From: an uncultured Lachnospiraceae bacterium
GTDB taxonomy: Bacteria; Bacillota; Clostridia; Lachnospirales; Lachnospiraceae
Assembly: GCA_947588675.1 (NCBI GenBank)
Contig: CANPYY010000011.1
Span: 1,456 to 65,455 of the forward strand
DNA length: 64,000 nucleotides
Reading direction: 5' to 3'
Shown: positions 39,565-56,508 of the stretch, piece after piece
Position numbering within the stretch: the stretch's first letter is position 1
Layout of the letters: the number at the start of each line of letters is the position of its first letter
Translations under genes and position numbers: made by a program
The notes under the pieces: generated by a model
Databases searched by the model: none
The model's input: the letters and a program-made list of their open reading frames with translations, nothing else
What the model was told of the DNA's origin: nothing

Positions 39565-39582
39565 CAGATATGAGGGGGAAAT

Positions 39583-40329
39583 ATGATATTCAGAATAGCA
39601 ATTCCAAATTATTTTCAGTTTCGCATGATAAAAGACGTAAAGGACATAGTATTTGGAAAAGGAGGCGATATTCATTATATAGGCGGCGCCGAAATACTGC
39701 CTGCCCCTTTTGAACCCGATGAAGAACTTGTATGGATTAACAGGCTGGAAACGGAAGAAGGAAGAAATGAAGCCATTGCGGTTTTGGTAGAGCATAATTT
39801 AAGGCTTGTGGTATATATAGCAAAGAAATTCGATAATACCGGAGTTGGAGTAGAAGACCTTATATCAATAGGAACTATCGGACTTATGAAAGCGATAAAT
39901 ACTTTTAAATCCGAAAAGAAAATTAAGCTTGCAACTTATGCTTCAAGGTGTATTGAAAATGAAATACTTATGTATCTTAGGAAAACAAGCAAGACAAAAC
40001 TTGAAGTATCAATAGATGAACCCCTTAATGTTGACTGGGACGGCAATGAACTGCTGTTATCCGATATACTTGGAACGGATGACGATGTTATATCAAAGGA
40101 GCTGGAAAATGAAGTTGATAAAAAAATGCTGAAAAAAGCGCTTGAAAGGCTTAATGACAGGGAAAGGATGATTATACAGTTAAGATTTGGACTGGACAGC
40201 GATGAAGGACTGGAAAAGACCCAGAAAGAAGTTGCGGATATACTCGGCATTTCCCAATCATACATATCAAGGCTGGAAAAAAAGATTATGAAACGGCTTA
40301 AAAAAGAGATACTTAAAATGGAATCCTAG
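39583..40329 (+). CDS. sigE: Sporulation sigma factor pro-sigma-E
   Basis: 248 aa. N-terminal pro-sequence, region 2 ([28 protein letters not shown]) and region 4 HTH ([22 protein letters not shown]). Confidence 0.92.
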
Positions 40330-40482: not shown

Positions 40483-42069
40483 TTAAAGTCCCTTATAAGA
40501 TAAAAAGTCAAAATCAGCATAATTATCAGACGGATGTCCGTTTGACGTTGCGTATATTCCGAGGCATGTTCCTACAAAGCCGCCTGCAGCGTCAGTGCAA
40601 AGTATACGTCCGTCTGCATTTTCTGTTACAGTCGTGTAATTTTTTCGGTCAAATGAATATGAGAAACTTATATCCTGTGCTTTCTGGACTGCTTTAAGGT
40701 ATATATTTACATGTCCTGCGTCCGGCGCGTTGATACTGCATTTTGCAATTTCACTTACGTTGTCAGTGCCGTTGTTTTGAAAACTTTTTAATACTTTAAG
40801 GCAATACATATCATTATCGCGTGTTACGGTGAATGTGTAATAATTACTGTCGCTTTGGAGAAGTACAAGACCGGCGTCTTCACATTCTGAAGGGTTAAAG
40901 TCAATACAGGTTTCAAGTTCATAGCTCATATCGGTCTGCCGGCGGCATATTAAAGTGGGCGATGAAGTGCCGTTTATGACTTCGGGAGATAGTTTAAGAC
41001 GCATAAATCCCTTTCTTTCCGTAAGAGAATACATATCTGTATCCGGGTTGCGCACATACATATAGTGAAATGGCAGAGTATCATAATCAAAGTCGTCAAA
41101 ACCGGGGACTGGCTCGTATTCTTCTTCTTTAAGGTCAGGCGCCGGTATGGTATCTTCAATTATTCCTTTGCCCGGATTGATAAGAGGCCATCCGTTTTCC
41201 CATGTCATCGGTACAAGGAATGTTTCGCGGCCGAGATTCCTATAGTATCCTCCGCCGTAAGGACGTGAAGCGAGAGCTACCATCCACCATTCGCCATTAT
41301 CGGTTTCTACTATATCGGGATGTCCGACATTGACAATAGGATATGTAAGGCCCAGATGCCTGTGGGTAAGTATTGGGTTGCCCGGATATCCGCAGAAAGG
41401 TTCTCTTAAACTTTTGCTTCGCGCAACAGTAACACAGTGCATGTGCGCCGTGCCGGCCTCGCTTATCATCAAATAATACCATCCGTCCTTTTTGTATATA
41501 TGAGGACCCTCCGGCCATTCTACATTTCGCAGGGCGCCGTGCCAGGCGGGCCATGACTCGCCTGTAAGTTTCATCGTATTAAGGTCAAGTTCCTGAATAT
41601 ATATTTCGTTGTCGCCAAAATACCGCGCGCCTTCACGGCGGTCTTTAGTGCCGCAGTAGTAGCAGCGTCCATCGTCATCAAAGAACAGGGACGGGTCTAT
41701 TCCCTCGCTTCCGAGACATATCGGATCTGACCACGGACCTGCCGGGTCTGTGGCGGTTACTATGAAGTTTCCGTTCCCTCCTCTTATATTAGTAGTAATT
41801 ACGTAAAAAGTACCGTTATTATACCTTATGGTAGGTGCGTATATGCCGTCATTGGCAATTTTGGTGCCTTCAAGAGGAAGCTGGCTTTTTCTGTCGAGTA
41901 CGTTGCCAATCTGTTCCCAGTGTACCAGATCTCTGCTGTGAAATATTGGTATACCCGGAAAGTAAGCAAATGTTGAATTAACCATGTAATAGTCGCGACC
42001 CGCCTTACATATTGAAGGGTCAGGGTAAAAACCTGCAAGTACAGGATTTTTGTATGTTTTATGTTTCAT
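40483..42069 (-). CDS. GH43 beta-xylosidase / alpha-L-arabinofuranosidase (XynB-like), cytoplasmic
   Basis: 528 aa with no signal peptide. N-terminus NPVLAGFYPDPSI...YYMVNSTF, a five-bladed propeller plus a C-terminal beta-sandwich. Confidence 0.88.
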   Translation of the reverse strand: MKHKTYKNPVLAGFYPDPSICKAGRDYYMVNSTFAYFPGIPIFHSRDLVHWEQIGNVLDRKSQLPLEGTKIANDGIYAPTIRYNNGTFYVITTNIRGGNGNFIVTATDPAGPWSDPICLGSEGIDPSLFFDDDGRCYYCGTKDRREGARYFGDNEIYIQELDLNTMKLTGESWPAWHGALRNVEWPEGPHIYKKDGWYYLMISEAGTAHMHCVTVARSKSLREPFCGYPGNPILTHRHLGLTYPIVNVGHPDIVETDNGEWWMVALASRPYGGGYYRNLGRETFLVPMTWENGWPLINPGKGIIEDTIPAPDLKEEEYEPVPGFDDFDYDTLPFHYMYVRNPDTDMYSLTERKGFMRLKLSPEVINGTSSPTLICRRQTDMSYELETCIDFNPSECEDAGLVLLQSDSNYYTFTVTRDNDMYCLKVLKSFQNNGTDNVSEIAKCSINAPDAGHVNIYLKAVQKAQDISFSYSFDRKNYTTVTENADGRILCTDAAGGFVGTCLGIYATSNGHPSDNYADFDFLSYKGL

Positions 42070-42281: not shown

Positions 42282-42310
42282 TAGACATTTGAACAAAAAA
42301 GTGATACAAT
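42282..42310 (+). promoter_or_regulatory. Candidate extended -10 sigma-A promoter for the sugar-utilisation operon
   Basis: TAGACA (42282-42287), 17-nt spacer, TGaTACAAT (-10 at 42305-42310). Confidence 0.4.
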
Positions 42311-42419: not shown

Positions 42420-45395
42420 ATGTCAAAACTTAAAGAAGTATTAAGCAAAAAAATTGTTCAAATACCTCTTATAATAATTGCATTTGTAATTATTATCGTT
42501 GTATGGAAAACTTTGGCTAACGGACAAGACAGCTATCATGACAAGTATGAAGGCGCTGACCTGACTGCTGACGTCGAAGGAATAGCCAGAGATGATACAT
42601 ACGCAAAATATCTTCAGAAATATGAAGGTATGGATAGCCCTGATGAAGTGATTGACGTTGATATATTTAATTATTTATCGACGAGCAGCGGAGTATCCGT
42701 TATAAATAATATTGACGGAGAAGACAAAGCTATTCAGGCATCTGAGGATGGCTCTGCAGAATGGGAGGTTGATATTCCCAAGGAGGGAATGTATAACATC
42801 TATGTTGAGTACTATCCTATAGAATCCAGGGGAATTGACATTGAACGTGCCGTATATATAAATGGAGAAATGCCATTTTACGGAGCAGATGCTGTTACAT
42901 TCAGCAGGGTGTGGGCTGATTCGGCTGAAATACAGCAGGATAATCAGGGAAATGATATAAGACCTACGCAGATTGAAGCGCCGATATGGCAGAGTACATA
43001 TTTGAAAGATTATATGGGATATCATGTTGAACCATATAAATTTTATTTTAAAAAGGGAGTAAACACCTTAAAGTTTGAAGGTGTTAATGAGCCTATAGCA
43101 ATAAGGAAAATATCTATTCTTAATAAGAAAGCGGAGCCTTCTTATCAGGAATATTATGATTCGATAGTGCTTGAGGATTATAACAATTCTGAAAACGCAG
43201 AGCCTGTAAAAATTCAGGGTGAAGCTTCGGTAAGACGTTCGTCGCCGTCGCTTTATCCAAATAACGACAGAGCTTCATCTATTACAGAACCATACAGTCC
43301 TACGCTTATTCTGATGAATAAGATAGGCGGTACGCAATGGAAAGTTGCTGGAGACTGGATTGAATGGGATTTTGAAGTGCCTGAAGACGGAATGTATACA
43401 ATATCCGTTAAAGGACGTCAGAATTACAACAGAGGTTTTGTTTCAAGCCGTTCAGTATCTATTGACGGGGAGTGTCCTTTTGAAGAATGTAATATAATAT
43501 CTTTCCAGTTTGAAAACGACTGGCAGATGTGTACATTAAGTGATGAAAATAAAAATCCTTACCAGTTTGCATTAAAGGCAGGTAAGCATACTATAAGACT
43601 TGAGGTAACGCTCGGAGACCTTGGAAATATACTTACCGAACTTAATGACAGCGTGTTCAGGCTTAATTCAATGTATCGTAAGATTCTGGTTCTTACAGGA
43701 GCCGAACCGGATGAGTTCAGAGATTATAATATTGATGAAGTTTATCCTGAAGTTATAGAAGGTATGGATATTGAGTGCAAGAGATTGTATAAGATAGTTG
43801 ATGATCTTGTAGAATTTTCAGGTGAGAAGGGTTCGCAGGTTGCATCAATACTTACTGTTGCCAATCAGCTTGAAAAGTTCGTTAAGAAACCTGATAAGAT
43901 TCCGAAATCACTTGCTAATTTCAAGGAAAATATAAGTGCGATAGGTACAGGAATCAATTCACTGAGCGAAGCTCCTCTTGATGTAGACTTTATACAGGTT
44001 ACTCCTGCAGGAGGACAGCTTCCTGAATGTAAAGAATCATTCCTTCAGAGTGCAATGCATGAAATAAGAGTGTTTATAGCTTCCTTCATTGTGGATTATA
44101 CCGCGCTCGGAAATGTATATGACGATAAAGATACGGAACTCCTTGACTGCTGGATTCTTTCAGGACGTGACCAGAGTTCGATTCTTAAAACCATGATTGA
44201 TGATACGTTTGTTCCGAAATATGGAATAGGCGTCAATGTAAAACTTATCGATGCAACGACATTGCTTCCTGCGGTAGTTGCGGGAACCGGTCCGGATATT
44301 GCTCTTACGGTGGCGCAGACAGAACCTGTAAACTATGCGCTCAGGAAAGCGGCATATGACCTTACCCAGTTTGATGACTGGGAGGAATGGAAGACCAATG
44401 TGCTTGAAAAGGAATTTTATGAAAGTTCATATATTTCCTATCAGTTTAACGGCGGAATGTATGCTCTCCCCGAAACACAGAACTTTAACGTATTGTTCTA
44501 CAGACAGGATATTTTAGATGAACTTGGAGTGGAAGTTCCGCAGACATGGCAGGATCTTATATCCATACTTCCTACTATTACAAATAACAATCTTCAGGTT
44601 GGTATACCAAGTACCGAAAGAAAAGTTGGTAATACGGCTAACCCCGACCTTGCTAACTATTTCTGCCAGCTTTATCAGAGGGGCGGTACTCTTTACACGC
44701 CTGACCAGACGGCGGTAAATATTGATACTGAAGAAGCTATTGAAGCATTTGAATATTTCACAAAATTGTTTACTAATTATAAAGTTCCTACGAGTTATGA
44801 CTTTGTAAACCGATTCAGGTCAGGAGAAATGCCGATAGGTATACAGGACTTCTCAAACTACAATACTCTTGTAGTATTCGCGCCTGAGATAAAGGGACTT
44901 TGGAATTTTGCACTTGTTCCCGGATATGAGCGTGAAGATGAAAACGGAAATAAATACATAGACCGTTCGGTACAGTCATGGGGACAGTGTTCAATGATTC
45001 TTACGAAACATGACGGCGAGGAAAAATATGATTTGGCATGGACATTCTTAAAATGGTGGCTGGATTCCGATACACAGGTAAGGTTCGGACGCGAGCTTGA
45101 AAGTGTAATGGGAGCTTCCGCCAGATATGCTACAGCAAACACGGTTGCATTTGAACAGCTTTCATGGAGCAAGAAAGATGCAGATGTACTTAAAGAGCAG
45201 TGGGAGTGGGCAATAGGTATACCGGAAATTGCCGGAGGATACTATACTTCAAGGCATATTACGAATGCAATAAGAAATGTCATGAATGATAATGATGATC
45301 CTCGTGAAACGATTCTTGATTACTCAAGAACAATTAATGACGAGATTACCAATAAACGTAAAGAGTTCGGACTTCCGGTCAAAGAGGAAGACTGA
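42420..45395 (+). CDS. Giant membrane-anchored protein: TM helix + two CBM-like beta-sandwich repeats + family-1 solute-binding domain
   Basis: 991 aa. TM IVQIPLIIIAFVIIIVVW. Repeat signatures WEVDIPKEGMYNIYVEYY (about 42762) and WIEWDFEVPEDGMYTISVKG (about 43355). The C-terminal ~420 aa (from about 44130) resemble a CUT1 sugar-binding protein. Confidence 0.7.
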   Translation: MSKLKEVLSKKIVQIPLIIIAFVIIIVVWKTLANGQDSYHDKYEGADLTADVEGIARDDTYAKYLQKYEGMDSPDEVIDVDIFNYLSTSSGVSVINNIDGEDKAIQASEDGSAEWEVDIPKEGMYNIYVEYYPIESRGIDIERAVYINGEMPFYGADAVTFSRVWADSAEIQQDNQGNDIRPTQIEAPIWQSTYLKDYMGYHVEPYKFYFKKGVNTLKFEGVNEPIAIRKISILNKKAEPSYQEYYDSIVLEDYNNSENAEPVKIQGEASVRRSSPSLYPNNDRASSITEPYSPTLILMNKIGGTQWKVAGDWIEWDFEVPEDGMYTISVKGRQNYNRGFVSSRSVSIDGECPFEECNIISFQFENDWQMCTLSDENKNPYQFALKAGKHTIRLEVTLGDLGNILTELNDSVFRLNSMYRKILVLTGAEPDEFRDYNIDEVYPEVIEGMDIECKRLYKIVDDLVEFSGEKGSQVASILTVANQLEKFVKKPDKIPKSLANFKENISAIGTGINSLSEAPLDVDFIQVTPAGGQLPECKESFLQSAMHEIRVFIASFIVDYTALGNVYDDKDTELLDCWILSGRDQSSILKTMIDDTFVPKYGIGVNVKLIDATTLLPAVVAGTGPDIALTVAQTEPVNYALRKAAYDLTQFDDWEEWKTNVLEKEFYESSYISYQFNGGMYALPETQNFNVLFYRQDILDELGVEVPQTWQDLISILPTITNNNLQVGIPSTERKVGNTANPDLANYFCQLYQRGGTLYTPDQTAVNIDTEEAIEAFEYFTKLFTNYKVPTSYDFVNRFRSGEMPIGIQDFSNYNTLVVFAPEIKGLWNFALVPGYEREDENGNKYIDRSVQSWGQCSMILTKHDGEEKYDLAWTFLKWWLDSDTQVRFGRELESVMGASARYATANTVAFEQLSWSKKDADVLKEQWEWAIGIPEIAGGYYTSRHITNAIRNVMNDNDDPRETILDYSRTINDEITNKRKEFGLPVKEED

Positions 45396-45430
45396 CGGAA
45401 TAATTATTAAATGAAAGGAGAGGTAAGTTA

Positions 45431-46369
45431 ATGAGTTCAGTCATGGCTAAATATATGACAATACAGAAACGGAAATTCAAGCATGGCTGGAAGGTTGCAA
45501 AACAGTCCAGAATATGCTACCTTTTCCTGCTTCCGTATGCACTTTTGTTTACACTCTTTACGGTAGCTCCGGTATGTATGTCAATATATTACAGTTTTAC
45601 CTATTACAATGTTCTTGAGCCTGCTCGTTTCATAGGGCTTACGAACTATATCAATCTTATTCTTGCAGACGATGTATTCCTTATATCGGTTAAGAATACA
45701 TTCCTGCTTGCGGCTATTACCGGTCCGATAGGATATATTATGTCGTTTTTGTTCGCATGGTTTATTAATGAGCTGCCAAGACTTCTAAGGGCAATCATGG
45801 TACTTATATTCTATGCTCCGACAATATCCGGCCAGGTATATATGGTATGGGCGCTGTTGTTCAGCGGTGACTCATACGGATATGTAAATGCATGGCTTAT
45901 GCAGTTCGGTATTATTGATGAACCGGTGTTATGGCTTACAGATGTTAAATATATGATGGGAGTTATTATTATAGTAGTTCTCTGGATGAGTCTTGGAAAC
46001 GGCTTCCTGTCGTTTGTCGCAGGACTTCAGGGAATTGATGAATCGCAGTTTGAAGCAGGGTATGTCGATGGTATTAAAAACCGGTGGCAGGAATTGTGGT
46101 ATATTACACTTCCTAATATGAAACCTATGCTTTTGTTCGGTGCGGTAATGGCAATTACCCAGTCATTCGGTGTTGCAGATGTTACTATGGTGCTATGCGG
46201 ATTCCCAAGTACGGATTATGCCGCAGAAACTGTTGTATCCCACCTGATTGACTATGGTCAGTACAGGTTTGATATGGGATACGCCTCTGCAATAGCAACG
46301 GTGCTGTTCGTTGTTATGATTCTGTGTAACAAGGCTGTTCACGCATTGCTTAGAAAAGTAGGAACGTAA
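45431..46369 (+). CDS. CUT1 sugar ABC transporter permease (MalF-like)
   Basis: 312 aa, 6 TM. EAA loop FEAGYVDGIKNRWQELWYITLPNMKP. Confidence 0.88.
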   Translation: MSSVMAKYMTIQKRKFKHGWKVAKQSRICYLFLLPYALLFTLFTVAPVCMSIYYSFTYYNVLEPARFIGLTNYINLILADDVFLISVKNTFLLAAITGPIGYIMSFLFAWFINELPRLLRAIMVLIFYAPTISGQVYMVWALLFSGDSYGYVNAWLMQFGIIDEPVLWLTDVKYMMGVIIIVVLWMSLGNGFLSFVAGLQGIDESQFEAGYVDGIKNRWQELWYITLPNMKPMLLFGAVMAITQSFGVADVTMVLCGFPSTDYAAETVVSHLIDYGQYRFDMGYASAIATVLFVVMILCNKAVHALLRKVGT

Positions 46370-46382
46370 GGGAGATGCTGAT

Positions 46383-47267
46383 ATGAAAAAGAATATGAAA
46401 AAAAATAGAAGAAAGTTATTAAGAAAAAGAAAACCTAACCGGTCCATAGGCGGAGATATTGGAATTTATATTCTTCTTATACTGTTTGGCGCTTTCTTTG
46501 CCCTGCCGCTTGTATATTCAATTTGTACAGCATTTAAGCCGTTGGATGAGATATATATATTCCCGCCTAAGTTTTATGTTAAAAATCCTACAATGGATAA
46601 CTTTGCGGACCTGTTTAACATTATGGGACAGTCATTCGTACCGTTTTCCAGATACATATTTAATTCGGTATTTATGACTGCTGCGGGCACATTCGGAAAC
46701 GTTATATTCTGTTCGATGGGTGCATATGTACTTTCCAAGTACAACTTCCCGGGCGGAAAGGCGTTCTTTGCAATGGTACAGACAGCGCTTATGTTCTCCG
46801 TATATGTTACGCAGATTCCTAACTATCTGATTATGACTAAACTCGGGTGGATTGATACTTATTTGTCGATTATAATACCTGCGTTTGCAACCCCTATGGG
46901 ATTGTTCCTTATGAAACAGTTCATGGAGGGGATTCCGGATGCCCTTATTGAGGCCGCTAAAATAGATGGAGCGAAAGAGGGACGTATTTTTGTGCGAATA
47001 GTAATGCCAATGGTTAAACCGGCGTGGCTGACGCTTATAATATTCTCAGTTATTGCCATATGGAATAACAGGGCAGCTACATTCATTTATTCAGAGGAAC
47101 TTAAAACATTGCCGTATGCACTGCAGCAGCTTATTCTCGGTGGTGTGTCACGTGCAGGTGTAGGAGCAGCAGTTACATTGTTTATGATGATAGTACCGAT
47201 TGCGATATTCCTTATGTGTGAAGGAAACGTTATTGAAACAATGGCAAGCTCCGGTATTAAGGATTAA
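46383..47267 (+). CDS. CUT1 sugar ABC transporter permease (MalG-like)
   Basis: 294 aa. EAA loop IEAAKIDGAKEGRIFVRIVMPMVKP. Confidence 0.88.
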   Translation: MKKNMKKNRRKLLRKRKPNRSIGGDIGIYILLILFGAFFALPLVYSICTAFKPLDEIYIFPPKFYVKNPTMDNFADLFNIMGQSFVPFSRYIFNSVFMTAAGTFGNVIFCSMGAYVLSKYNFPGGKAFFAMVQTALMFSVYVTQIPNYLIMTKLGWIDTYLSIIIPAFATPMGLFLMKQFMEGIPDALIEAAKIDGAKEGRIFVRIVMPMVKPAWLTLIIFSVIAIWNNRAATFIYSEELKTLPYALQQLILGGVSRAGVGAAVTLFMMIVPIAIFLMCEGNVIETMASSGIKD

Positions 47268-47278
47268 GGAGGGAGAAA

Positions 47279-48766
47279 ATGAAAAAGATTATTCGCAGTT
47301 TAATTCCGGTTTGCTGTCTGATGTTGTTTTCAGCACTCCTTATTCAGCCGGCAACGGCATCGGCCGAAGAAGACCTGTTCTATACTTATACATATGACTA
47401 CTGGGGTATAGAGAGAGAGTCCCCGGATGCATATGCAATGAATTCGGTCGTTTTGGGAGATGATTTTGGCATCGGCAATTTCAATGCACCGGAGGGCATG
47501 TTTGTAAAAGATAATCAGCTTTATATATGTGATACGTTAAATAACAGGATTATCCAGTTTTCATATGCGAATGACGAATTTTCGCTTGTGAAAGTCGTTA
47601 CAGAGGTAAATAATAACGGAAAACCTGAACCGATATTGCAGCCATACGATGTATTCGTTACGGATGACGATGAATGGTATATAGCTGATTATGGAAATCA
47701 GCGTATTGTATATACTGATAACAGTCAGAATGTAATCGGTACAATATATAAGCCGGAGGATGAAGAAACTCTTAATGCAGATTATATGTTCCTTCCAAAG
47801 AAACTTGTTGTAGACAGCGCAAAACGTATATTTGTACAGGCGGAAAATATTAACAAGGGCTTTATGGAATTTGAGGATGGAGGAGAGTTTGTAGGATATA
47901 TCGGAGCGGCTGATGTACAGTTTGACTTTATAAAATATATATACAAACTTATATCCACACAGGAACAGAGAGATCAGATGGAAGCATTTGTTCCTACAGA
48001 GTATAACAATATAGCGCTTGACTCTGAAGGATTTATATATGCTACTCTCAGCAAATTTGAAAGTGATAATGCATCATCATCAAAACCTATCAGAAGGCTT
48101 AATGCAAAGGGAACCGATATACTTATTAGGAATGGTTATTACGAGCAGATAGGAGATGTGCAGATAGGTAACGGAGGAGGATATAACGGTTCTTCTAAAT
48201 TTGCTGACGTTACGGTGCTTGATAATGATTGTTATTATTGCCTGGATCAGACCAGAGGACGTGTATTTGGTTATGATTTTCAGGGAAATATGCTGTACGC
48301 CTTTGGAGGTATAGGATATAAACAGGGTTGTTTTAAATATCCGGTGGCTATAGAGTCTTTAGGCGACTCGCTTCTTATACTGGATAAAGAGCTCGGCATT
48401 GTAACACAGATGACGCTTACTGAATATGGTACGCTTATTAATAAAGCGCTTGATACATATAAGATAGGCGAATATGATACGTCGGCTGATTATTGGCGTG
48501 ACGTACTTAAACTTAATGGTAACTACGACCTGGCGTATATCGGAATCGGACGTTCGCTTCTCAGGCAGGACAGATTTGAAGAAGCCATGGAATATTTTAA
48601 ACTCAAGCTTGATTATAAGAACTATTCAAAGGCATATAAGCTCTATCGTAAAGACAGGATAGAAGATAATGTCAAATATGTTTTCATAATCTTTGTGGCT
48701 TTGTTGGTAATAGTATTTATTAAAAATACTGTTAAGAAAATCAGAAGGGAGGTTAATGAGGAATGA
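47279..48766 (+). CDS. Exported NHL-repeat beta-propeller protein with TPR-like segment and C-terminal TM anchor
   Basis: 495 aa. Signal peptide (LIPVCCLMLFSALLIQPATASA). NHL-like repeats (LYICDTLNNRIIQF, WYIADYGNQRIVY, LLILDKELGIVTQM). TPR-like LAYIGIGRSLLRQDRFEEAMEYF. C-terminal TM FIIFVALLVIVFI. Confidence 0.65.
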   Translation: MKKIIRSLIPVCCLMLFSALLIQPATASAEEDLFYTYTYDYWGIERESPDAYAMNSVVLGDDFGIGNFNAPEGMFVKDNQLYICDTLNNRIIQFSYANDEFSLVKVVTEVNNNGKPEPILQPYDVFVTDDDEWYIADYGNQRIVYTDNSQNVIGTIYKPEDEETLNADYMFLPKKLVVDSAKRIFVQAENINKGFMEFEDGGEFVGYIGAADVQFDFIKYIYKLISTQEQRDQMEAFVPTEYNNIALDSEGFIYATLSKFESDNASSSKPIRRLNAKGTDILIRNGYYEQIGDVQIGNGGGYNGSSKFADVTVLDNDCYYCLDQTRGRVFGYDFQGNMLYAFGGIGYKQGCFKYPVAIESLGDSLLILDKELGIVTQMTLTEYGTLINKALDTYKIGEYDTSADYWRDVLKLNGNYDLAYIGIGRSLLRQDRFEEAMEYFKLKLDYKNYSKAYKLYRKDRIEDNVKYVFIIFVALLVIVFIKNTVKKIRREVNEE

Positions 48767-49428
48767 AAAGTATTACAAAGAGTTCTGCAAAGGCAAAACT
48801 AATTCATTTCAGGGATACTCTCAGATACTCGCTTCACTGTATAGTCAGTCCGTTTGATGGATTCTGGGATTTGACGCATGAGCACAGAGGCTCTGCCAGT
48901 GCGGCTACATTTATTGTAATTATGACAATACTTACAAACATATGGAAGATGAGATATACAAGTTTTGTCTTTATACGTGTACAATGGGAATATTTCAATA
49001 TAGTATTGAATATTTGCAGCTTTTTACTTCCTTTCTTTGTATGGGTGCTGTCAAACTGGTGCCTTACGACACTCTTTGACGGTAAAGGAACTATGAAAGA
49101 TATTTATATAGGTTCCGCATATGCCCTGACACCATATGTATTAATTCAGCTTCCGATGATATTTGCAAGTAACTTTATAACTTATGAGGAAGGTGCATTT
49201 TATAATTACTTCCTTTCATTTTCAATAATATGGTGTGCATTTCTGTTTCTTGCATCTGTTATGCAGATACATGACTTTAGTTTTGGAAAAGCAATTTTTT
49301 CGATACTTTGTATTCTTGTAGGTATGCTGGTAATAGTATTTATCATGGTACTGTTTTTCAGCTTGATTAGTGAAGCGGTCGCTTACTTTATATCTTTATA
49401 TAAAGAGATTGCTTTCAGATTTTATTAA
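48763..49428 (+). CDS. Yip1-domain polytopic membrane protein
   Basis: 221 aa with about 5 TM helices. ATGA overlap with the NHL gene. Yip1 assignment is by topology and sequence feel, not verified. Confidence 0.55.
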   Translation: MKSITKSSAKAKLIHFRDTLRYSLHCIVSPFDGFWDLTHEHRGSASAATFIVIMTILTNIWKMRYTSFVFIRVQWEYFNIVLNICSFLLPFFVWVLSNWCLTTLFDGKGTMKDIYIGSAYALTPYVLIQLPMIFASNFITYEEGAFYNYFLSFSIIWCAFLFLASVMQIHDFSFGKAIFSILCILVGMLVIVFIMVLFFSLISEAVAYFISLYKEIAFRFY

Positions 49429-49451
49429 TATCAGGAAAGGAGGGCTTAACA

Positions 49452-52007
49452 TTGAAAAAATTAAAATTACTGCTTCCGTTGATTTTGATAATCATTATGG
49501 CTTCAGGATGCAATCAGTCGGACTCGGACAGTGCTTTTATTGATGTTCAGGATTATTCAGAGGAAGCTGAAGGAAAAGAAATAAAAATTGTTAATGATCA
49601 GTTTGAATTTGTAATGAATGCTGATAATACCCAATTTTCCGTACTTAATAAAGCTGATGGACGGATATGGTATTCAAATCCTCAGAATGTTGATACAGAT
49701 ACGCTTGCAATAGGAAGTAACAGGGATGTGCTGTTATCTACGCTGTATGTAAAATACAGTGATTCCAAAGGACAGGATTTTTCTTATGATAATTTTGCTT
49801 ACAGTATTAAGGATAAGCGTTATTCAATTGAGGAATTAAAAGATGAATCGGGGAATGTAAATGGAGTTAAGGTACTGTATACAATAGGTGATATACAGAA
49901 AACCTATATGGTTCCCCAGGCAATCACTGAAGAAAGAATGGAAGAATTTTGCGCCAATATGAGTGATGCGGATTCAAAGAAGATTAAAAATTTCTACAGG
50001 CGTGTTGACATTAATGCTTTAAGACCTACTGATAACAAGGATGAACTTCTTGAACAGTATCCGGACCTTGCAGATACAAAAGTGTATATAATGCGTAGCG
50101 GACAAAGCGATACAAAACTCGAAGGATTTCAGGAACTGTTTGAATCGGCAGGTTATACGAAAGAAGAATATGATTATGATAATTCAAGAATTAATGTAGA
50201 CCAGTCTACAGATAAGGCTGCTTTCAATATTCCTGTATATTACAGGCTTGAGGAAAATGGACTTGTCGTAGATGTACCTATGGAGGAAATACAGTATTAT
50301 CAGAAATATCCTATTACATATCTTACCATATTGCCGTTCTTTGCAGCAGGCGGTACAGATGAAGAAGGATATATGTTTGTTCCGGACGGTTCAGGCGGAA
50401 TTATCAATTTCAACAATGGTAAGGTTGGCCAGGCAGCATATTACAACCAGATGTACGGCGCCGACTTATGTATAACAAGAAAGGCTGTTGTGGATGAGAG
50501 TGAAGTAAATTATCCGGTTATCGGTGTTTCAAAAGGCGACAGTTCTGTTTTATGTACGATAGAAAACGGAAGTTCATATGCAATAGTGGAAGCTGATGTT
50601 GCCGGACGATACAACAGTTACAATTCAGTCAAATTTACATATACGATGTTGCGTGGAGAGGATATGGATATATCCGGTAAATCAGATATAACGATAAGAA
50701 CATATGAGAAGGGACTGCCGGCTGAGCATCTTATCCAGAGATATATGTTCATTGATAAAGGCGGTTATGTCGATATGGCGTCAGCATACAGGGATTACCT
50801 TATTAATACATATCCTTCACTTGCAGATAAAAATGATGAAAATGTTTCGCTCGTACTCGATATGATTGGAGGGGTAGACGATAAGGAGCATATAATGGGT
50901 GTGCCGGTAACAAAAGATTTACCTCTTACAAAATATAAAGAAGCTGAAACCATTGTAAATGAAATGCTTGAAAGCGGAGTTAATAATATGTCGGTAAAAT
51001 ATTCGGGCTGGTGCAATAATGGTATACACAATTCATCAGTAAGAAAAGTTAAACCGTCTAAGAAGCTTGGAAGCAAAAAAGAACTCAAATCGTTCATTCA
51101 GACCGCACAGTCAAATGGCGTAGACGTATATATGGATGCAAACTTCCAGTTTGTATATAAAAATAAAATTTTTGACAAATACAGTGTAAACAGAGATACG
51201 TCAAAATTTGTAAGCCGTGAATTGGCTGAGCTTTCATATTACAGTCCTATATATTTTGCACAGCAGCCTGAGGAATATGAGTATTACCTTACAAGACCTT
51301 CATATGCAATTGGAAATGTAGACAGTTTCCACAAATATATAACCGGACTTGGATGTGAAAATATTTCATTTGCGGATTTGAGTACCGAACTTAGCGGTGA
51401 TTATAATTATAAGAAACATGTATCAAGAGAAGAAGCCATGAACATGATAACAACCAAATATCAGGAACTGTCTGAAAGCGGTTCAAAAGTTATGGCCAAT
51501 TCGGATTATTTTTACAATATTCCTTATGCGGATGTAGTTACGGGAATGGTTCTTAGTAATAAGAGCTTTAATATAGTTGATGAAACCGTTCCTTTCTATC
51601 AGATTGCGCTTCATGGAATTGTAGATTATACCGCTGAGTCATTAAACCTTTCACAGAATGCGGAAGAAACATATTTGAAATCGGCAGAACTTGGAGCAGG
51701 TTTGTACTATACGCTCACACAGAGTCCGTCGTCCGTTCTTCAGGACAGTAAATATACAGAGTATTTTGCTACGGAGTATAATCTGTGGAAAGATACCATT
51801 ATTGAAGAATATAACAGATTCTCAGGTGATTTTAACGGTACATATGATGAATTTATTATAAATCACGAAAAAGTTGCGGGAAATGTGTACAGAACCGAGT
51901 TCGCCAATGGAGTTAAGGTTATTGTCAATTACAATTATAACGACTTCAGCTACAACGGTACCAATATTCCGGCAAGAGATTATATTGTGGAAGGGGGAAG
52001 TAACTGA
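49452..52007 (+). CDS. Large lipoprotein, DUF5696-like, function unknown
   Basis: 851 aa. TTG start 8 nt after AAAGGAGGG. Lipoprotein signal LILIIIMASGC. The family name is recalled from homologues in Paenibacillus and Clostridia and is not verified. Confidence 0.6.
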   Translation: MKKLKLLLPLILIIIMASGCNQSDSDSAFIDVQDYSEEAEGKEIKIVNDQFEFVMNADNTQFSVLNKADGRIWYSNPQNVDTDTLAIGSNRDVLLSTLYVKYSDSKGQDFSYDNFAYSIKDKRYSIEELKDESGNVNGVKVLYTIGDIQKTYMVPQAITEERMEEFCANMSDADSKKIKNFYRRVDINALRPTDNKDELLEQYPDLADTKVYIMRSGQSDTKLEGFQELFESAGYTKEEYDYDNSRINVDQSTDKAAFNIPVYYRLEENGLVVDVPMEEIQYYQKYPITYLTILPFFAAGGTDEEGYMFVPDGSGGIINFNNGKVGQAAYYNQMYGADLCITRKAVVDESEVNYPVIGVSKGDSSVLCTIENGSSYAIVEADVAGRYNSYNSVKFTYTMLRGEDMDISGKSDITIRTYEKGLPAEHLIQRYMFIDKGGYVDMASAYRDYLINTYPSLADKNDENVSLVLDMIGGVDDKEHIMGVPVTKDLPLTKYKEAETIVNEMLESGVNNMSVKYSGWCNNGIHNSSVRKVKPSKKLGSKKELKSFIQTAQSNGVDVYMDANFQFVYKNKIFDKYSVNRDTSKFVSRELAELSYYSPIYFAQQPEEYEYYLTRPSYAIGNVDSFHKYITGLGCENISFADLSTELSGDYNYKKHVSREEAMNMITTKYQELSESGSKVMANSDYFYNIPYADVVTGMVLSNKSFNIVDETVPFYQIALHGIVDYTAESLNLSQNAEETYLKSAELGAGLYYTLTQSPSSVLQDSKYTEYFATEYNLWKDTIIEEYNRFSGDFNGTYDEFIINHEKVAGNVYRTEFANGVKVIVNYNYNDFSYNGTNIPARDYIVEGGSN

Positions 52008-52921
52008 TGCAGAAAAAGAAACGTAAAATGACGCTTGCAACAAAAAATGCCATAACCGGATATTTGTTTATACTTCCGTTTATTATTGGATTTCTGTTGT
52101 TCATGTTGATTCCGCTGTTTCAGTCGCTTAGAATGAGCTTCTCTGATGTAACGGTAAATCCTACTGCAGGCGGTTTTGTAATGGAGTTTGTAAAGCTTAG
52201 CAAGTATAATGAGTCTATTAATATTGACCCGGAGTTTAAAATACTTTTATTGGAGAATCTCAGGGGTATGCTTGTAGATCTCCCTGCCACGCTTATATTC
52301 AGCTTCTTTGTTGCACTGCTTCTTAACCAGACGTTCAAAGGCAGAGGTTTTGTAAGAGCAATATTCTTTATGCCGGTTATACTTTCATCAGGTGTTATAG
52401 TAGGACTTGAATATAACAATGCAATGCTTGCCGGCATGAAAGATGTTATACAGGAAACTTCAAATTCCTCAAGCATTACGACAGTGCTGCAGGATATGCT
52501 TGTTACTGAGGGCTCGCAGGCCGGAGACTTTTTCCAGTTTATATTTGACCTTATAGACCATGTGTATGATATTGCGATACAATCCGGTATACAGATTATA
52601 ATATTCCTTTCAGGACTGCAGACAATATCGCCAAGTATGTTTGAGGCGGCCAAGATTGAGGGATGTACGGCATGGGAATGTTTCTGGAAGATAACGCTTC
52701 CTATGGTAAGCTCGCTTATTCTGGTTAATATTATTTATACCATTATCGATTACTTCTGCCGTTCAGATAACGAAGTTATGGAGTATATATCAGAGGTAAC
52801 AATATCGAAAATGAATTATGGTTTGAGTTCTGCGATGTCGTGGATTTACTTTGTTTGTTGTTTGTTGATTATTGGAATCATCTCGTTAATAATTTCAAAG
52901 AAGGTGTACTATTATGAGTAA
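52007..52921 (+). CDS. CUT1 sugar ABC transporter permease (MalF-like), second importer
   Basis: 304 aa. EAA loop FEAAKIEGCTAWECFWKITLPMVSS. The start shares one nt with the upstream stop (TGATG). Confidence 0.88.
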   Translation: MQKKKRKMTLATKNAITGYLFILPFIIGFLLFMLIPLFQSLRMSFSDVTVNPTAGGFVMEFVKLSKYNESINIDPEFKILLLENLRGMLVDLPATLIFSFFVALLLNQTFKGRGFVRAIFFMPVILSSGVIVGLEYNNAMLAGMKDVIQETSNSSSITTVLQDMLVTEGSQAGDFFQFIFDLIDHVYDIAIQSGIQIIIFLSGLQTISPSMFEAAKIEGCTAWECFWKITLPMVSSLILVNIIYTIIDYFCRSDNEVMEYISEVTISKMNYGLSSAMSWIYFVCCLLIIGIISLIISKKVYYYE

Positions 52922-53909
52922 AAAAACAAAAAAATGGCAGGCCTTTATGGAACGCAACAGGAAATCCAACGGCTATCTGATGCGTAAAACCATATTTAAT
53001 ATCGGATATAAAATATGTCGTGCAATATTGATATTCGGATTGTGTTTCCTGATTATCCAGCCTTTGCTGAATAAGATATCACTTAGTTTTATGGAGGAAC
53101 AGGATCTTTATGATTCTACTATTGTAAGTATACCTCGTCACTTTACCACATCGGGGTATAAACTTACAGCGCAGCTTATGAAATACTGGAAGGCTTTGGG
53201 TACTACTACATATATAAGTCTTCTTGTAAGCATATTCCAGGTTGCGGCGGCAACATTTGTAGGATACGGTTTTGCAAGATATAAATTTCCATTTAAGAAT
53301 TTCTGGTTCTTTATGGTAATACTTGTAATCATAATACCTCCTCAGACAATTATGGCTCCGTTGTACCTGAACTTTACTTACTTTGACCCGCTTGGATTAG
53401 TTTCACTGTTTACGGGTAAACCTGTAAACCTTATTAATACGATGCTTCCGTATTTGCTTCTTTGTCTTGGCTGTATGGGACTAAAGAGCGGCCTGTATAT
53501 ATATCTTATCAGGCAGTTCTTCAGGAATGTTCCGAAGGATATTGAAGAAGCGGCATATGTTGACGGTTGCGGAAAATTCAAAACGTTTTACCGTATAATG
53601 CTTCCGGATGCAAAACCTATTATTACTTCCTGCTTCCTGTTTGCATTTGTATGGCAGTGGACTGATAAATTTTATTCACAGATGTTTTTGAGAAAGTATA
53701 CGCTTCTCTCAACATCCCTTTCAGGATTGTCTGACTCGCTTGACACATTCCTTAAAAATGCAGGAATTTCAGAGAAAGCGTCGATGGCGTATTCATCAGC
53801 TACGGTAGCTACCGGTACGCTTATGACAATTATACCTTTGTTAATCATATACGTATTTGCACAGAAGGGATTTGTGGAAAGTTTAAGTCAGTCAGGTATT
53901 AAGATGTAA
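52914..53909 (+). CDS. CUT1 sugar ABC transporter permease (MalG-like), second importer
   Basis: 331 aa. EAA loop EEAAYVDGCGKFKTFYRIMLPDAKP. Overlaps the upstream gene by 8 nt. Confidence 0.88.
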   Translation: MSKKTKKWQAFMERNRKSNGYLMRKTIFNIGYKICRAILIFGLCFLIIQPLLNKISLSFMEEQDLYDSTIVSIPRHFTTSGYKLTAQLMKYWKALGTTTYISLLVSIFQVAAATFVGYGFARYKFPFKNFWFFMVILVIIIPPQTIMAPLYLNFTYFDPLGLVSLFTGKPVNLINTMLPYLLLCLGCMGLKSGLYIYLIRQFFRNVPKDIEEAAYVDGCGKFKTFYRIMLPDAKPIITSCFLFAFVWQWTDKFYSQMFLRKYTLLSTSLSGLSDSLDTFLKNAGISEKASMAYSSATVATGTLMTIIPLLIIYVFAQKGFVESLSQSGIKM

Positions 53910-53913
53910 AACG

Positions 53914-53942
53914 TTGATTTACTTCGTTTTATATGTTATAAT
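53914..53942 (+). promoter_or_regulatory. Internal extended -10 sigma-A promoter upstream of the second SBP gene
   Basis: TTGATT (53914-53919), 17-nt spacer ending in TGT, TATAAT (53937-53942). Confidence 0.55.
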
Positions 53943-54009
53943 GTTATGGTTTGGATTTGCATAGCAAAAAATATTATAATATAAAATTCAGAAAGGAGTA
54001 TATTGAGCT

Positions 54010-55440
54010 ATGATTAAAAGAAAAAAATTTATAGCATTATGTTTATCAGCCGTACTCGCTGCATCAGTTTTAAGCGGTTGTAGCGGTGACAGCGGTGAAA
54101 CGCCTGCTGATGGAAATAATGCTGATGCTGAAGTTACCGAGAACCCTGATGAAAGTAGTGACGATGGAGGTTCAACACTCAAGACGTATGATGACCTTGG
54201 CGGAATGAAGATTACCATAGGCGACTGGTATTCAGCAGAGGAAGAAGACCTGTCTACACAGTATGCGGAAGATACATACAATTACAGACAGGAAATATAT
54301 GATAAGTATAATTTTACTATTGAAAGACAGAAGATTGGCGTATGGGGAGATATGGCAGAAACATTTACGACTGACGTTATGGCAGGAACTCCGCGTGTTG
54401 ATATCTGGTATCTGTATCAGACAACAGTTGCACAGCCGTTAAAGAACAATCTGTTCTATGACCTTAGTACATTGGAAACCGTAGATTTCTCAGCAGAGAA
54501 GTGGAATCAGCATGTTAAAGAACTGATGACATATAACGGCGGTATATATGGTATGTCAACAGAAAAAGAGCCAAGAGCTGCTATTTTCTATAACAAGAGG
54601 ATGTTTGAAGAAGCAGGAATTGACCCTGACGAGCCATATGAACTTCAGAAAAATGGTGAGTGGACATGGGATAAATTTGAAGAATACTGTGCAAAACTTA
54701 CACAGGATACGGATAACGATGGTAAAACCGATATATATGCAATGGCATCATTCTCAAAGGATTACTTTAAGTTAGCTGTAGCAAGTAACGGCGCTCAGTT
54801 TGTATCAAAGAATGCCGAAGGTAAATATGAGAATGCTACAAAGACACAGAACTTTATTGATGCTGCAAACTGGGCTGTAAGCCTTATTGACAGAGGTTAT
54901 GTCATGAGGACGCCTACTGATGAGGTTAGCAATGCAGATGCAAGCTGGACAGAAATCAGATTCCGTGACGGCGAATGTGCAATGCAGACCGCAGAGGTAT
55001 ATCAGGTAGGAAACTTTGCAGAATCAATGGATGATGAATTTGGACTTGTTATGTTCCCTGCCGGACCTAATGGAAACATGGCTACAGTTCCAATGGATAA
55101 TGTAATCGTTATTCCTTCATGTTATACTGATAAAGAATATGTTGAAAAACTTATGTTTGCATATAACCTTTATACAGAACCTGCTCCGGGATATTCACTT
55201 GATGAAATATGGAAAAATACTTATTATCCGCAGTTCCCGGATACAAGAGCCGTAGATGAAACACTTACAATGATGCGTGATGACCAGTACAGAGTTTATG
55301 ATTATCAGTCAATGATAATCGGTACTGATTATGGTGATTTTGCATATGCTGTTGAAGCCGGAGCAAAAACGCCTGCAGAACAGCTTGAAGAAATGACTCC
55401 TACCTGGGATGGAAAAATCAAAGAGGCAAACGGCGAATAA
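54010..55440 (+). CDS. CUT1 family-1 solute-binding lipoprotein (xylo-oligosaccharide/aldouronate-type)
   Basis: 476 aa. Lipobox VLSGC followed by an acidic Gly/Ser/Asp-rich linker. SBP fold similarity. Confidence 0.85.
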   Translation: MIKRKKFIALCLSAVLAASVLSGCSGDSGETPADGNNADAEVTENPDESSDDGGSTLKTYDDLGGMKITIGDWYSAEEEDLSTQYAEDTYNYRQEIYDKYNFTIERQKIGVWGDMAETFTTDVMAGTPRVDIWYLYQTTVAQPLKNNLFYDLSTLETVDFSAEKWNQHVKELMTYNGGIYGMSTEKEPRAAIFYNKRMFEEAGIDPDEPYELQKNGEWTWDKFEEYCAKLTQDTDNDGKTDIYAMASFSKDYFKLAVASNGAQFVSKNAEGKYENATKTQNFIDAANWAVSLIDRGYVMRTPTDEVSNADASWTEIRFRDGECAMQTAEVYQVGNFAESMDDEFGLVMFPAGPNGNMATVPMDNVIVIPSCYTDKEYVEKLMFAYNLYTEPAPGYSLDEIWKNTYYPQFPDTRAVDETLTMMRDDQYRVYDYQSMIIGTDYGDFAYAVEAGAKTPAEQLEEMTPTWDGKIKEANGE

Positions 55441-55461
55441 TTATTTTTTAATATAATAGTT

Positions 55462-55509
55462 AAGGAGCTGTAACTTAAACATATATTGATTTTGTTACAG
55501 CTCCTTTTT
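55462..55509 (+). terminator. Rho-independent terminator after the SBP gene
   Basis: 13-bp stem AAGGAGCTGTAAC / GTTACAGCTCCTT followed by TTT. Confidence 0.7.
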
Positions 55510-55542
55510 GGATATTTATTGTAAATTGTTGAGGGATTAGTA

Positions 55543-56508
55543 ATGATTGGTCTTAAAGATAAATATAAAGATTATTTTGATATAGGGGCGGCCGTAAACT
55601 GTGAAACGGTTAAAGCGGACAAAGATATTATTATTAATAATTTTAGCAGTATTACCTGTGAAAACCAGATGAAATTTGGAGTATTATATAAAGAAGACGG
55701 CACGTATAATTTTCAAATGGCGGATGAATTATATGCTTTTGCCAAAGAAAATAATTTGGAAATGCGCGGACATAATTTTGTATGGCATAACCAGACTCCG
55801 CTGCATATTTTTAAGAAAAGCAAAGAGGAAGTTACAGAGATATTGAAAAACCATATGCGTTATATGAACGAACGGTATGGCGACGTCATAGATTGCTGGG
55901 ACGTTATTAATGAGGGAATTGAAGACAAGAGCAGCGAATTTTTAAGGAAAAGCCCATGGTTAGACAAATTTGGCGACGATTATTGCAAATTTGTATTTAA
56001 GCTTGCAAAAGAAACGCTGCCTAAACATATAAAACTGTTTTACAATGATTATAATGAATATATTCCGGAAAAAAGAGATAAAATTATTGCTTTGATAAAA
56101 CATATTAATGCGGATGAAAAACTTATTGACGGCGTAGGAATGCAGTGCCATGTAAACCTGTATTATCCTACGATTGACCTTGTGCGGAAAGCTATTGAGA
56201 TGTATATTGAACTTGGAGTCAGGATACATATAACCGAAATGGATTTGTCTTATTTTAGCTATGACGACAGAAAGTGTCTGGATAAACCTGATACAAAACT
56301 TCAGGAAATGCACGCTAAGGTGTACGGCGACTATTTTGCCCTGTTCCGTGAATATAAAGATTACATCGATAATGTTACTCTCTGGGGAGTATCAGACAGG
56401 TATACGTGGCTTGATTATTTCCCTGTTGAAAACAGGAAAAACTGGCCATTGTTATTTGATACCGATGGAAACCCAAAAGAGTCTTATTATCGTGTTATAG
56501 ATTTTTAA
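55543..56508 (+). CDS. GH10 endo-1,4-beta-xylanase, intracellular type
   Basis: 321 aa with no signal peptide. HNFVWHNQTP, acid/base WDVINEG, nucleophile ITEMDL. Confidence 0.9.
   Translation: MIGLKDKYKDYFDIGAAVNCETVKADKDIIINNFSSITCENQMKFGVLYKEDGTYNFQMADELYAFAKENNLEMRGHNFVWHNQTPLHIFKKSKEEVTEILKNHMRYMNERYGDVIDCWDVINEGIEDKSSEFLRKSPWLDKFGDDYCKFVFKLAKETLPKHIKLFYNDYNEYIPEKRDKIIALIKHINADEKLIDGVGMQCHVNLYYPTIDLVRKAIEMYIELGVRIHITEMDLSYFSYDDRKCLDKPDTKLQEMHAKVYGDYFALFREYKDYIDNVTLWGVSDRYTWLDYFPVENRKNWPLLFDTDGNPKESYYRVIDF

Follow-up and report, generated by a model that had tools for sequence, protein, structure and literature searches.

Xylan loci of Gram-positive bacteria carry two separate importers of the CUT1 type of ATP-binding cassette (ABC) transporters, as in the case of XynEFG and AguEFG of Geobacillus stearothermophilus or of the aldouronate cluster of Paenibacillus. 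Here, we describe a gene block in a stretch of DNA from an uncultured Lachnospiraceae bacterium (contig CANPYY010000011.1; the whole stretch of 64,000 nt is called the window) that comprises six open reading frames (ORFs) on the forward strand (42420-52007) and the genes downstream of them. As in the paired xylan importers, every channel consists of a permease pair of the MalF/MalG type with a family-1 solute-binding protein (SBP), the locus lacks an ATPase gene, and intracellular glycoside hydrolases (GHs) of the families GH10, GH67, GH43 and GH3 are encoded nearby. In contrast to those importers, the two channels belong here to one fixed cassette, which also encodes four additional proteins of the surface or membrane; one of the SBPs has a length of about 1000 amino acids, a transmembrane (TM) anchor and two modules that resemble carbohydrate-binding modules (CBMs), and the arrangement is found in non-xylan loci, too. 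Our work identifies the six ORFs together with the following permease pair (52007-53909) as the invariant core of a widespread cassette of the Bacillota, and we regard it as reasonably probable that the eight gene products work together as one multi-protein machine that imports oligosaccharides through two ABC channels and has no fixed glycan.

With the Sus-like systems of the Bacteroidota the cassette has in common that surface glycan-binding proteins, a GH-like lipoprotein and a transporter form a unit beside the enzymes of inner degradation, and that the core is reused for many glycans. Here, however, there is no outer membrane, the transporters are ABC importers, and the proteins are not homologous: Neither a SusC/TonB-dependent transporter nor SusD was detected in Pfam scans of the block. 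The analogy to Sus-like or cellulosome-type capture drawn in a first-pass annotation of the window thus has no counterpart in the domains present, since cohesin and dockerin were missing from these scans as well. The YknWXYZ system of Bacillus resembles the cassette in that a small multi-TM protein of the Yip1 family is encoded together with ABC transporter genes; YknYZ, however, is a MacB-type exporter with a membrane-fusion protein, whereas Yip1 is encoded here together with an NHL-TPR protein, a GH-like lipoprotein and importers of type I. YknW has been reported to modulate the assembly of the ABC transporter (PMC4887032).

Conservation of the cassette

The core genes and the gene of the ordinary SBP (SBP2) are arranged as follows:

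42420..45395, forward strand: long SBP, 991 amino acids (ORF; AlphaFold2 model with pLDDT 86.5 and pTM 0.82)
45431..46369, forward strand: permease P1, UgpA/MalF-like (BPD_transp_1, E 4.6e-14; NCBIfam UgpA/GlcT-like)
46383..47267, forward strand: permease P2, UgpE/MalG-like (BPD_transp_1; NCBIfam UgpE/GlcU-like)
47279..48766, forward strand: NHL-TPR protein, 495 amino acids (signal-like N-terminus, NHL propeller, TPR repeats, C-terminal TM segment)
48763..49428, forward strand: Yip1-family protein, 221 amino acids (Pfam Yip1, PF04893, 40.5 bits, cut-off 28.6)
49452..52007, forward strand: DUF5696 lipoprotein, 851 amino acids, TTG start (Pfam E 9e-190; AlphaFold2 model with pLDDT 88.2; lipobox)
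52007..52921, forward strand: permease P3, UgpA/MalF-like with an inserted loop (start overlaps the DUF5696 stop)
52914..53909, forward strand: permease P4, MalG/UgpE-like (domain matches; conserved cassette order)
54010..55440, forward strand: ordinary SBP lipoprotein SBP2 (SBP_bac_8, SBP_bac_1; lipobox VLSGC)

All coordinates and lengths that the first-pass annotation had given for the six ORFs were reproduced, and its domain labels and topology (the permease pair, the NHL-TPR protein, Yip1 with five TM segments, the N-terminal TM segment of the long SBP) hold. The four non-permease proteins, described there as membrane or extracytoplasmic, are predicted to face the outside of the cell while being anchored in the membrane.

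In a scan of one genome per species, 483 stretches encode a DUF5696 relative, and the best 80 of these loci were compared with the window proteins; these 80 are the best matches to the window protein and hence biased to the xylan type. The eight genes always occur in the order long SBP, P1, P2, NHL-TPR, Yip1, DUF5696, P3, P4, and the ordinary SBP gene stands at either end of the cassette or is absent. Among the best 80 of the 483 loci, 63 have all nine genes in order with SBP2 last, one more has all nine with a split long-SBP ORF, 13 are cut by contig ends, and three (L020, L040, L057) lack only SBP2. The cassette order is also kept, as far as the contigs reach, in 17 of 17 distant loci (L085-L101, several of them on short contigs), although identity to the window has dropped to 23-32% for DUF5696 and 27-38% for the N-terminal part of the long SBP. 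Eight of these 17 loci were retrieved by a metagenome scan that was seeded with the DUF5696 protein of another one, L088. Wherever a contig was long enough to show it, the long SBP was accompanied by the NHL-TPR gene, and the Yip1 gene was found in every complete cassette. The first-pass annotation had made its reading dependent on co-occurrence of the genes outside this genome, and the cassette is clearly present in many species.

Most carriers belong to the Lachnospiraceae, among them Eubacterium xylanophilum, Clostridium sp. KNHs205, Anaerocolumna and, according to a protein search, Butyrivibrio; others are metagenome-assembled genomes labelled Roseburia or Eubacterium, and the samples come from the gut of humans, rodents and rabbits and from the rumen. 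The GC content of all loci covers a range of 34 to 61%, which makes it probable that the carriers are not restricted to the Lachnospiraceae. In our literature search, which included work on Butyrivibrio and on gut transporters, we found no description of it.

P1/P2 and P3/P4 form two complete MalF/MalG-type pairs with the BPD_transp_1 domain, and the family-1 SBP that a CUT1 importer requires is encoded twice, as the C-terminal domain of the long SBP and as SBP2. The idea of a surface module coupled to a separate importer has to be revised: P3 and P4 are themselves invariant members of the cassette, P3 always follows DUF5696 directly, and only SBP2 moves or drops out. The label of a classical aldouronate importer has no direct support either, as the closest solved relative of SBP2 is the arabino-oligosaccharide binder AbnE (6rjy, E 1.6e-13). 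An ABC_tran gene for the ATP-binding subunit was found neither in the block nor in the gene table of any related locus. The sole ABC_tran ORF among those scanned in the window (3261-5219) has tandem ABC_tran domains with an ABC_tran_Xtn linker, and its product is read as an ABC-F-type protein rather than a transporter subunit. In the Bacillota, a shared ATPase of the MsmX/MsmK type that is encoded elsewhere is usual.

Two observations concern individual members of the permease and SBP2 group. In P3, the permease model was matched over residues 194-248 only, with an extra stretch before the conserved core (as judged from the alignment with the fusion protein P0064, see below), and the P3 equivalent in L100 is without any Pfam match. 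In L020, L040 and L057, P4 is directly followed by GH10 or GH3, leaving P3-P4 without a dedicated SBP in the cassette.

Glycan context

The cassette is not specific for xylan but reused for several glycans, because the same genes are found beside those of GH26 and GH113 beta-mannanases and of GH38, GH63-like and GH76-like enzymes; the designation as a xylan module was therefore too narrow. L088 has GH26, CBM35-GH26, a CBM35-SASA esterase and LacI as neighbours, L089 a GH76-like enzyme, L100 a GH38 alpha-mannosidase and GntR, and L101 a GH63-like enzyme and LacI. GH26 follows the cassette in L088, L092, L093, L095 and L097, while GH113 is found in L098 and a GH2 beta-mannosidase in L099. These include six of the eight loci retrieved with L088 as the seed, four with GH26 and one each with GH113 and GH2; in this mannan-type clade SBP2 is encoded upstream of the long SBP. 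Regulatory genes of the AraC, LacI or GntR type flank the cassette in relatives, none of them as a fixed neighbour.

In the window, the catabolic genes on both sides belong to the variable part of the locus:

40483..42069, reverse strand: GH43 beta-xylosidase/arabinofuranosidase, intracellular, variable flank (Pfam; no signal peptide)
55543-56508, forward strand: GH10, intracellular, variable catabolic flank
56537-58699, forward strand: GH3, intracellular, variable catabolic flank
58724-60751, forward strand: GH67, intracellular, variable catabolic flank

None of the four has a hydrophobic N-terminus, in line with the earlier statement that they lack signal peptides, and we propose that the cassette supplies here an intracellular pathway in which GH10, GH3, GH67 and GH43 break down oligosaccharides of glucurono(arabino)xylan. 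The presence of GH10, GH3 and GH67 differs among related loci: The flanks of the 80 closest loci vary, although all are xylan-related, with GH10, GH43, GH3, GH67, GH8, GH51, GH5 and GDSL esterases. The first-pass annotation had regarded the four non-permease proteins as the only candidates for the first cleavage of the polymer; many related cassettes, however, have a GH10 lipoprotein of about 440 amino acids or a GH10 protein of 505-526 amino acids beside them, and from the absence of a secreted GH10 gene in the window no conclusion can be drawn for the remaining genome.

Conserved and variable components

A comparison of the window proteins with their mannan-type counterparts reveals how differently the components have diverged. 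The first channel is the most similar (P1 56-60%, P2 56-59% identity), followed by the binding domain of the long SBP (43-47%), P3 (40-43%) and P4 (38-43%). Lower values were obtained for the NHL-TPR protein (35-39%), the N-terminal part of the long SBP (35-38%), Yip1 (31-39%) and DUF5696 (29-32%), and SBP2 is the least similar of all (25-30%). Since SBP2 is the most divergent, movable and dispensable part of the cassette, it is the best candidate for the likely determinant of specificity, whereas the long SBP and P1-P2 seem to behave as a substrate-independent component. The long SBP had been taken as the substrate-specific capture element; between xylan and mannan loci its binding domain retains not only the identity given above but also numerous invariant Trp and Tyr residues. 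As a candidate for setting specificity it was rejected, being far more conserved across contexts than SBP2.

The long solute-binding protein

The long SBP is composed of the following parts:

42450..42518, forward strand: N-terminal TM segment or signal anchor, residues 11-33 (hydropathy 2.7; AlphaFold2 helix 11-33)
42645..43127, forward strand: CBM35/6-like module 1, residues about 76-236 (AlphaFold2 beta-strands; profile matches)
43206..43613, forward strand: CBM35/6-like module 2, residues about 263-398 (profile matches)
43614..44099, forward strand: helical bundle and linker, residues 399-560 (AlphaFold2 helices 399-426, 443-467, 472-489, 491-516 and 541-557)
44142..45374, forward strand: family-1 (CUT1-type) sugar-binding domain, residues about 575-985 (sequence and Foldseek matches)

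No lipobox cysteine is present in its N-terminus. The two beta-sandwich modules, which extend in the AlphaFold2 model over residues of about 78-234 and 263-396, proved to be internal repeats of each other (28% identity, E 4e-12), and the earlier description of two CBM-like repeats can be made more specific, as profile comparisons assign them to the CBM35/CBM6-like modules. An orthologue profile of module 1 matches the Clostridium thermocellum CBM35 entries 2w47/2w1w, which we take to be uronic-acid binders, weakly (E 0.011), and that of module 2 matches residues 420-520 of the cycloisomaltooligosaccharide glucanotransferase CITase (5x7g, E 3.5e-7). In Pfam searches with orthologues, CBM_35 was found in 20 of 31 (E<=1, best 2.5e-7), GH115_C in 11 of 31 and CBM_6 in 6 of 31, and module 1 was matched by Golvesin_C and CBM_35; the window protein itself reaches 16.7 bits for CBM_35, below the Pfam cut-off of 28 bits. 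With the CBM35 modules of 2w47, 2vzp and CITase 5x7g the repeats thus share beta-sandwich modules with similarity at the profile level, but here the predicted modules are attached to an SBP instead of an enzyme, and many of their positions are kept irrespective of the glycan context.

Between the modules and the binding domain, the AlphaFold2 model has a four-helix bundle (399-516); for the bundle and linker (399-560), profile and Pfam searches gave no family match. Among solved structures, Lin1841 (E 1.5e-11, also found by Foldseek), Tlet_1705 and Lmo0181 are closest to the binding domain, and Foldseek with the whole model returned only matches to SBPs and maltose-binding proteins. An exhaustive search with the N-terminal 560 amino acids gave 959 clusters (50% identity) at E<=1e-30, and most family members among the matches listed have 920-1050 amino acids. 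Across 57 sequences, 132 positions are at least 95% conserved, many of them Trp or Tyr in the binding domain. Three relatives (P0245, P0298, P0382; 1188-1389 amino acids) are 200-400 amino acids longer, and the query matched them in two or three stretches, which suggests that they carry extra CBM-like modules.

The DUF5696 lipoprotein

The protein that had been labelled DUF5696-like is a full member of the family: The Pfam profile DUF5696 (PF18952) matches end to end (632.6 bits, cut-off 25.6; profile positions 2-612 of 612). In the AlphaFold2 model, a (beta/alpha)8 barrel is preceded by one beta-sandwich at the N-terminus and followed by another at the C-terminus. The best folds in the PDB are 5opq/8rzk and 5wzn-5wzr (Foldseek E 1.7e-32 for 5opq and 6.2e-25 for 5wzq; TM-score on target 0.65-0.72), and the other fold matches are GH101, GH36 and a galactosaminidase, all of which act on alpha-linked sugars. 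The earlier suggestion of a glycan-active enzyme is therefore supported at the level of the predicted model, which has a glycosidase fold with a TIM barrel like those of GH129 and GH101. The relation to GH129 seems to go beyond the shared fold, since the family profile finds both GH129 proteins by sequence (5opq E 1.4e-12, NagBb E 5.7e-4) and thus identifies DUF5696 as a distant homologue; the family profile is needed, as the single window sequence finds neither of the two.

With the GH129 enzymes, i.e. NagBb of Bifidobacterium bifidum and DagB (ZGAL_3152) of Zobellia galactanivorans, DUF5696 shares the same three-domain architecture, which has been described for DagB (PMC5698469). It differs from them by an identity of only 11-14% over the structural alignment, by an extra helical insert in the N-terminal domain, by its tethering to the membrane, and by being always encoded between the Yip1 and permease genes. 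DUF5696 is tethered throughout the family: About half of its members have a lipobox, and the others seem to use a hydrophobic segment at the N-terminus as an anchor. DagB depends on D486, E517 and E531, and on D202 of the partner chain (PMC5698469). In DUF5696, the residues D582, D650, R659, D710, H721, N732, E746 and W520 are shared by the xylan, mannan and other clades (51-56 of 56 sequences), and the conserved polar residues in the barrel look like a preserved pocket. D650 is located 9 residues before the invariant R659, as compared to 7 residues between D486 and R493 of DagB, in a stretch outside the profile alignment.

The protein P0064 (1156 amino acids, one ENA contig) is an in-frame fusion of DUF5696 with P3, and its residues 857-1135 are 52% identical to P3 of the window. 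Our literature search found no paper that mentions DUF5696 or PF18952. A function of DUF5696 as a surface alpha-glucuronidase was dropped as the leading reading in view of the presence of the cassette in mannan, GH38 and GH63-like loci.

The NHL-TPR and Yip1 proteins

In the NHL-TPR protein of the window, the matches to NHL (24.6 bits, cut-off 20) and TPR are weak, but both domains are found in 31 of 31 orthologues. The orthologue profile matches six-bladed Pizza designs (E 6e-36) and, as the closest natural relative, the sensor domain of PknD (1rwi, E 2.7e-19), and the NHL part is thus assigned to the six-bladed propellers by profile similarity. The protein ends a few residues past the C-terminal TM segment. 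The start of the Yip1 gene overlaps the NHL-TPR stop by 4 nt, and the encoded protein has five hydrophobic segments; NCBIfam provides no name for the Yip1 and DUF5696 proteins.

Two distant loci encode the NHL-TPR and Yip1 proteins as a single polypeptide: L100:14878-17025 codes for a fusion of 715 amino acids, in which residues 36-485 align with NHL-TPR (37% identity) and residues 513-715 with Yip1 (46%), and L101:9743-11803 for a similar fusion of 686 amino acids. These cassettes are located beside the GH38 (L100) and GH63-like (L101) genes. Given these fusions and the precedent of YknW (PMC4887032), the role as a membrane scaffold that the first-pass annotation had assigned to Yip1 is plausible.

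A model for the cassette and alternative explanations

How could the eight proteins act together? In the import machine that we favour, extracellular enzymes encoded elsewhere, in relatives often a lipoprotein GH10 of the same locus, would release oligosaccharides. The TM-anchored long SBP would keep the chains near the membrane via its CBM35/6-like modules and feed P1-P2, while the NHL-TPR and Yip1 proteins would serve as a membrane scaffold that keeps the assembly together. On the P3-P4 channel, the tethered GH129-like DUF5696 protein may trim oligosaccharides or hand them over, SBP2 and the flanking enzymes would set the substrate specificity, and the ATPase subunits would come from elsewhere in the genome. 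From the NHL-TPR-Yip1 fusions, the DUF5696-P3 fusion and the overlapping stops and starts we infer that the proteins are coupled and may form a complex. It is tempting to speculate further that they represent a single, undescribed type of Gram-positive glycan-uptake machine, in which the GH129-like protein is mechanically coupled to one channel, which would link trimming or hand-over to import, the tethered CBM receptor serves the other channel, and the NHL-TPR-Yip1 scaffold joins both; in this full form, we consider the proposal possible but doubtful.

Several points weigh against such a machine. The distant loci are few and come from contigs of sufficient length, so that cassettes with a broken order could have gone unseen. 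The arguments for complex formation are synteny and fusions only, and the DUF5696-P3 fusion, known from a single contig, could result from read-through of the overlapping stop/start. Catalysis by DUF5696 is unproven, because D650, the candidate nucleophile equivalent to D486 of DagB and D435 of NagBb, is not invariant (51 of 56), and the column aligned with the second carboxylate (E478 of NagBb, E517 of DagB) is variable (N, K, Y, Q, T), in a weak segment of -0.1 bits. D642, an alternative to D650, is not invariant either, whereas the invariant D710 on a later strand could substitute for E517 as a candidate catalytic residue; both catalysis and binding thus have to be considered for DUF5696. 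A Gram-positive polysaccharide utilization locus is defined by the combination of enzyme, transporter and regulator; four GHs and two importers are present in the locus, but neither an ATPase gene nor, between sigE (39583-40329) and sigG (60822-61604), a regulator gene. How one long SBP that is so similar in both contexts serves xylo- as well as manno-oligosaccharides is puzzling. Finally, every step beyond synteny, folds and fusions is our interpretation.

Two other explanations assign a more defined chemistry to the surface proteins. According to one, which we consider improbable, the cassette serves xylan only: The long SBP would bind glucuronoarabinoxylan at the surface, where DUF5696, as a novel enzyme acting on xylan, would carry out the first depolymerization or debranching. 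The xylan enzymes (GH10, GH43, GH3, GH67) that flank all 80 closest loci, the lack of a secreted GH in the block of the window, the resemblance of module 1 to the CBM35 entries 2w47/2w1w and the glycosidase fold of DUF5696 would fit this idea, but the same cassette is present in beta-mannan, GH38, GH63-like and GH76-like loci, the long SBP retains 43-47% identity across contexts and has its 132 highly conserved positions, and the polar residues of DUF5696 are the same in every clade. Moreover, the GH129, GH101 and GH36 relatives cleave alpha-linked sugars, hence the beta-1,4-linked backbone is probably not the target, and relatives have lipoprotein GH10 xylanases beside the cassette. According to the other proposal, DUF5696 is a retaining alpha-glycosidase that trims side chains for the importers in a locus-dependent manner, similar to an alpha-glucuronidase or arabinosidase in the window and to an alpha-galactosidase in galactomannan loci. 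All of the closest folds are glycosidases for alpha-linked sugars, the profile homology to GH129 is real, D582, D650, D710 and E746 are conserved in the barrel, and among the helper proteins it is DUF5696 that differs most when xylan and mannan loci are compared (29-32%), as expected for changing subsites. However, the intracellular GH67 enzyme, which removes glucuronic acid from oligosaccharides, already provides this activity for the imported substrates, neither D650 nor D642 is invariant, the acid/base position of GH129 is not conserved, and, assuming that the -1 site is as well conserved as it seems, there is no obvious single alpha-linked sugar that all of the xylan, beta-mannan, GH38 and GH63 loci have in common. 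We therefore see such a debranching activity as a possibility, though a rather tentative one.

The remaining explanations deny the helper proteins a direct part in substrate handling. If the block simply contained two ordinary, independent CUT1 importers, as the two complete MalF/MalG-type permease pairs, the two SBPs and the separate importers known from xylan loci of Gram-positive bacteria, e.g. in Geobacillus, might suggest, the helper genes would merely be hitch-hiking without a joint function. We judge this to be very unlikely: The gene order is kept down to 23-30% identity and over a GC content of 34-61%, NHL-TPR is fused to Yip1 and DUF5696 to P3, stops and starts overlap, and the long SBP does not occur without the NHL-TPR gene on contigs of sufficient length. 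Even lower is the probability that we assign to a role of the helpers in sensing extracellular glycans or in remodelling the own cell wall for the passage of large oligosaccharides. The extracellular sensor domain of the kinase PknD is indeed the nearest natural relative of the NHL part, and the invariance of the helpers across glycan contexts would agree with a substrate-independent role, but they have no cytoplasmic signalling domain, the NHL-TPR protein ends shortly after its TM segment, and no kinase or regulator is a fixed neighbour, with AraC, LacI and GntR varying among relatives and none of them present in the window.

The carriers of the cassette belong to groups that ferment dietary fibre. 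If the eight proteins indeed form one import machine, the annotation and comparison of Gram-positive fibre-uptake loci would change, DUF5696, the bacterial Yip1 and the NHL-TPR proteins would acquire a function, and a Gram-positive system could be set beside the Sus paradigm. The finding that SBP2 alone changes with the glycan would also give a directly testable rule for the prediction of substrate specificity.

Expression signals and chromosomal context

The six ORFs are separated by 35, 13, 11, -4 and 23 nt, the sequence TGATG at the DUF5696/P3 boundary results in a stop/start overlap of 1 nt, and a GGAGG-like ribosome-binding site precedes every start codon. A simple scan detected no terminator-like site in the intergenic gaps from 42420 to 61604. 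Because of these tight junctions, the ribosome-binding sites and the absence of terminator-like sites from the gaps, it is plausible that the block is one expression unit, as the first-pass annotation had stated: The conserved co-directional module is confirmed. A consensus scan found two promoter-like sites:

42282..42310, forward strand: TAGACA-17-TACAAT with extended TG, in the 350-nt gap that separates the divergent GH43 and long-SBP genes (consensus scan alone, no evidence of function)
53914-53942, upstream of the SBP2 gene: promoter-like site with extended TG

The SBP2 gene is flanked by gaps of about 100 nt (53910-54009, 55441-55542), as opposed to the tight junctions elsewhere, and may have its own promoter. 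The consensus of the catabolite-responsive element cre had no match across the whole window.

The xylan block of about 20 kb, from GH43 to GH67, is located between spoIIGA-sigE (38698-40329) and sigG (60822-61604), sporulation genes that are adjacent in Bacillus. The combination of sigE upstream and sigG downstream is found again in seven of the closest related species (L001, L003-L007, L010), and L011 has sigG only. A second clade also has sigE upstream (L019, L033, L038, L044, L051-L054, L063).

Elsewhere in the window, a single ORF of 569 amino acids (35045-36754) joins FolB, HPPK (FolK), prephenate dehydratase and an ACT domain. This folate/phenylalanine fusion is unusual and lies inside a folate cluster with genes for GTP cyclohydrolase I, Pterin_bind and a Mur-ligase/FolC-like protein. 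The region 13181-21436 contains a gene for a T2SSE-type secretion ATPase (13181-14347), small ORFs, and an ORF of 998 amino acids (17789-20785) whose sole match is a bacterial Ig-like domain; it may be a pilus or secretion cluster.

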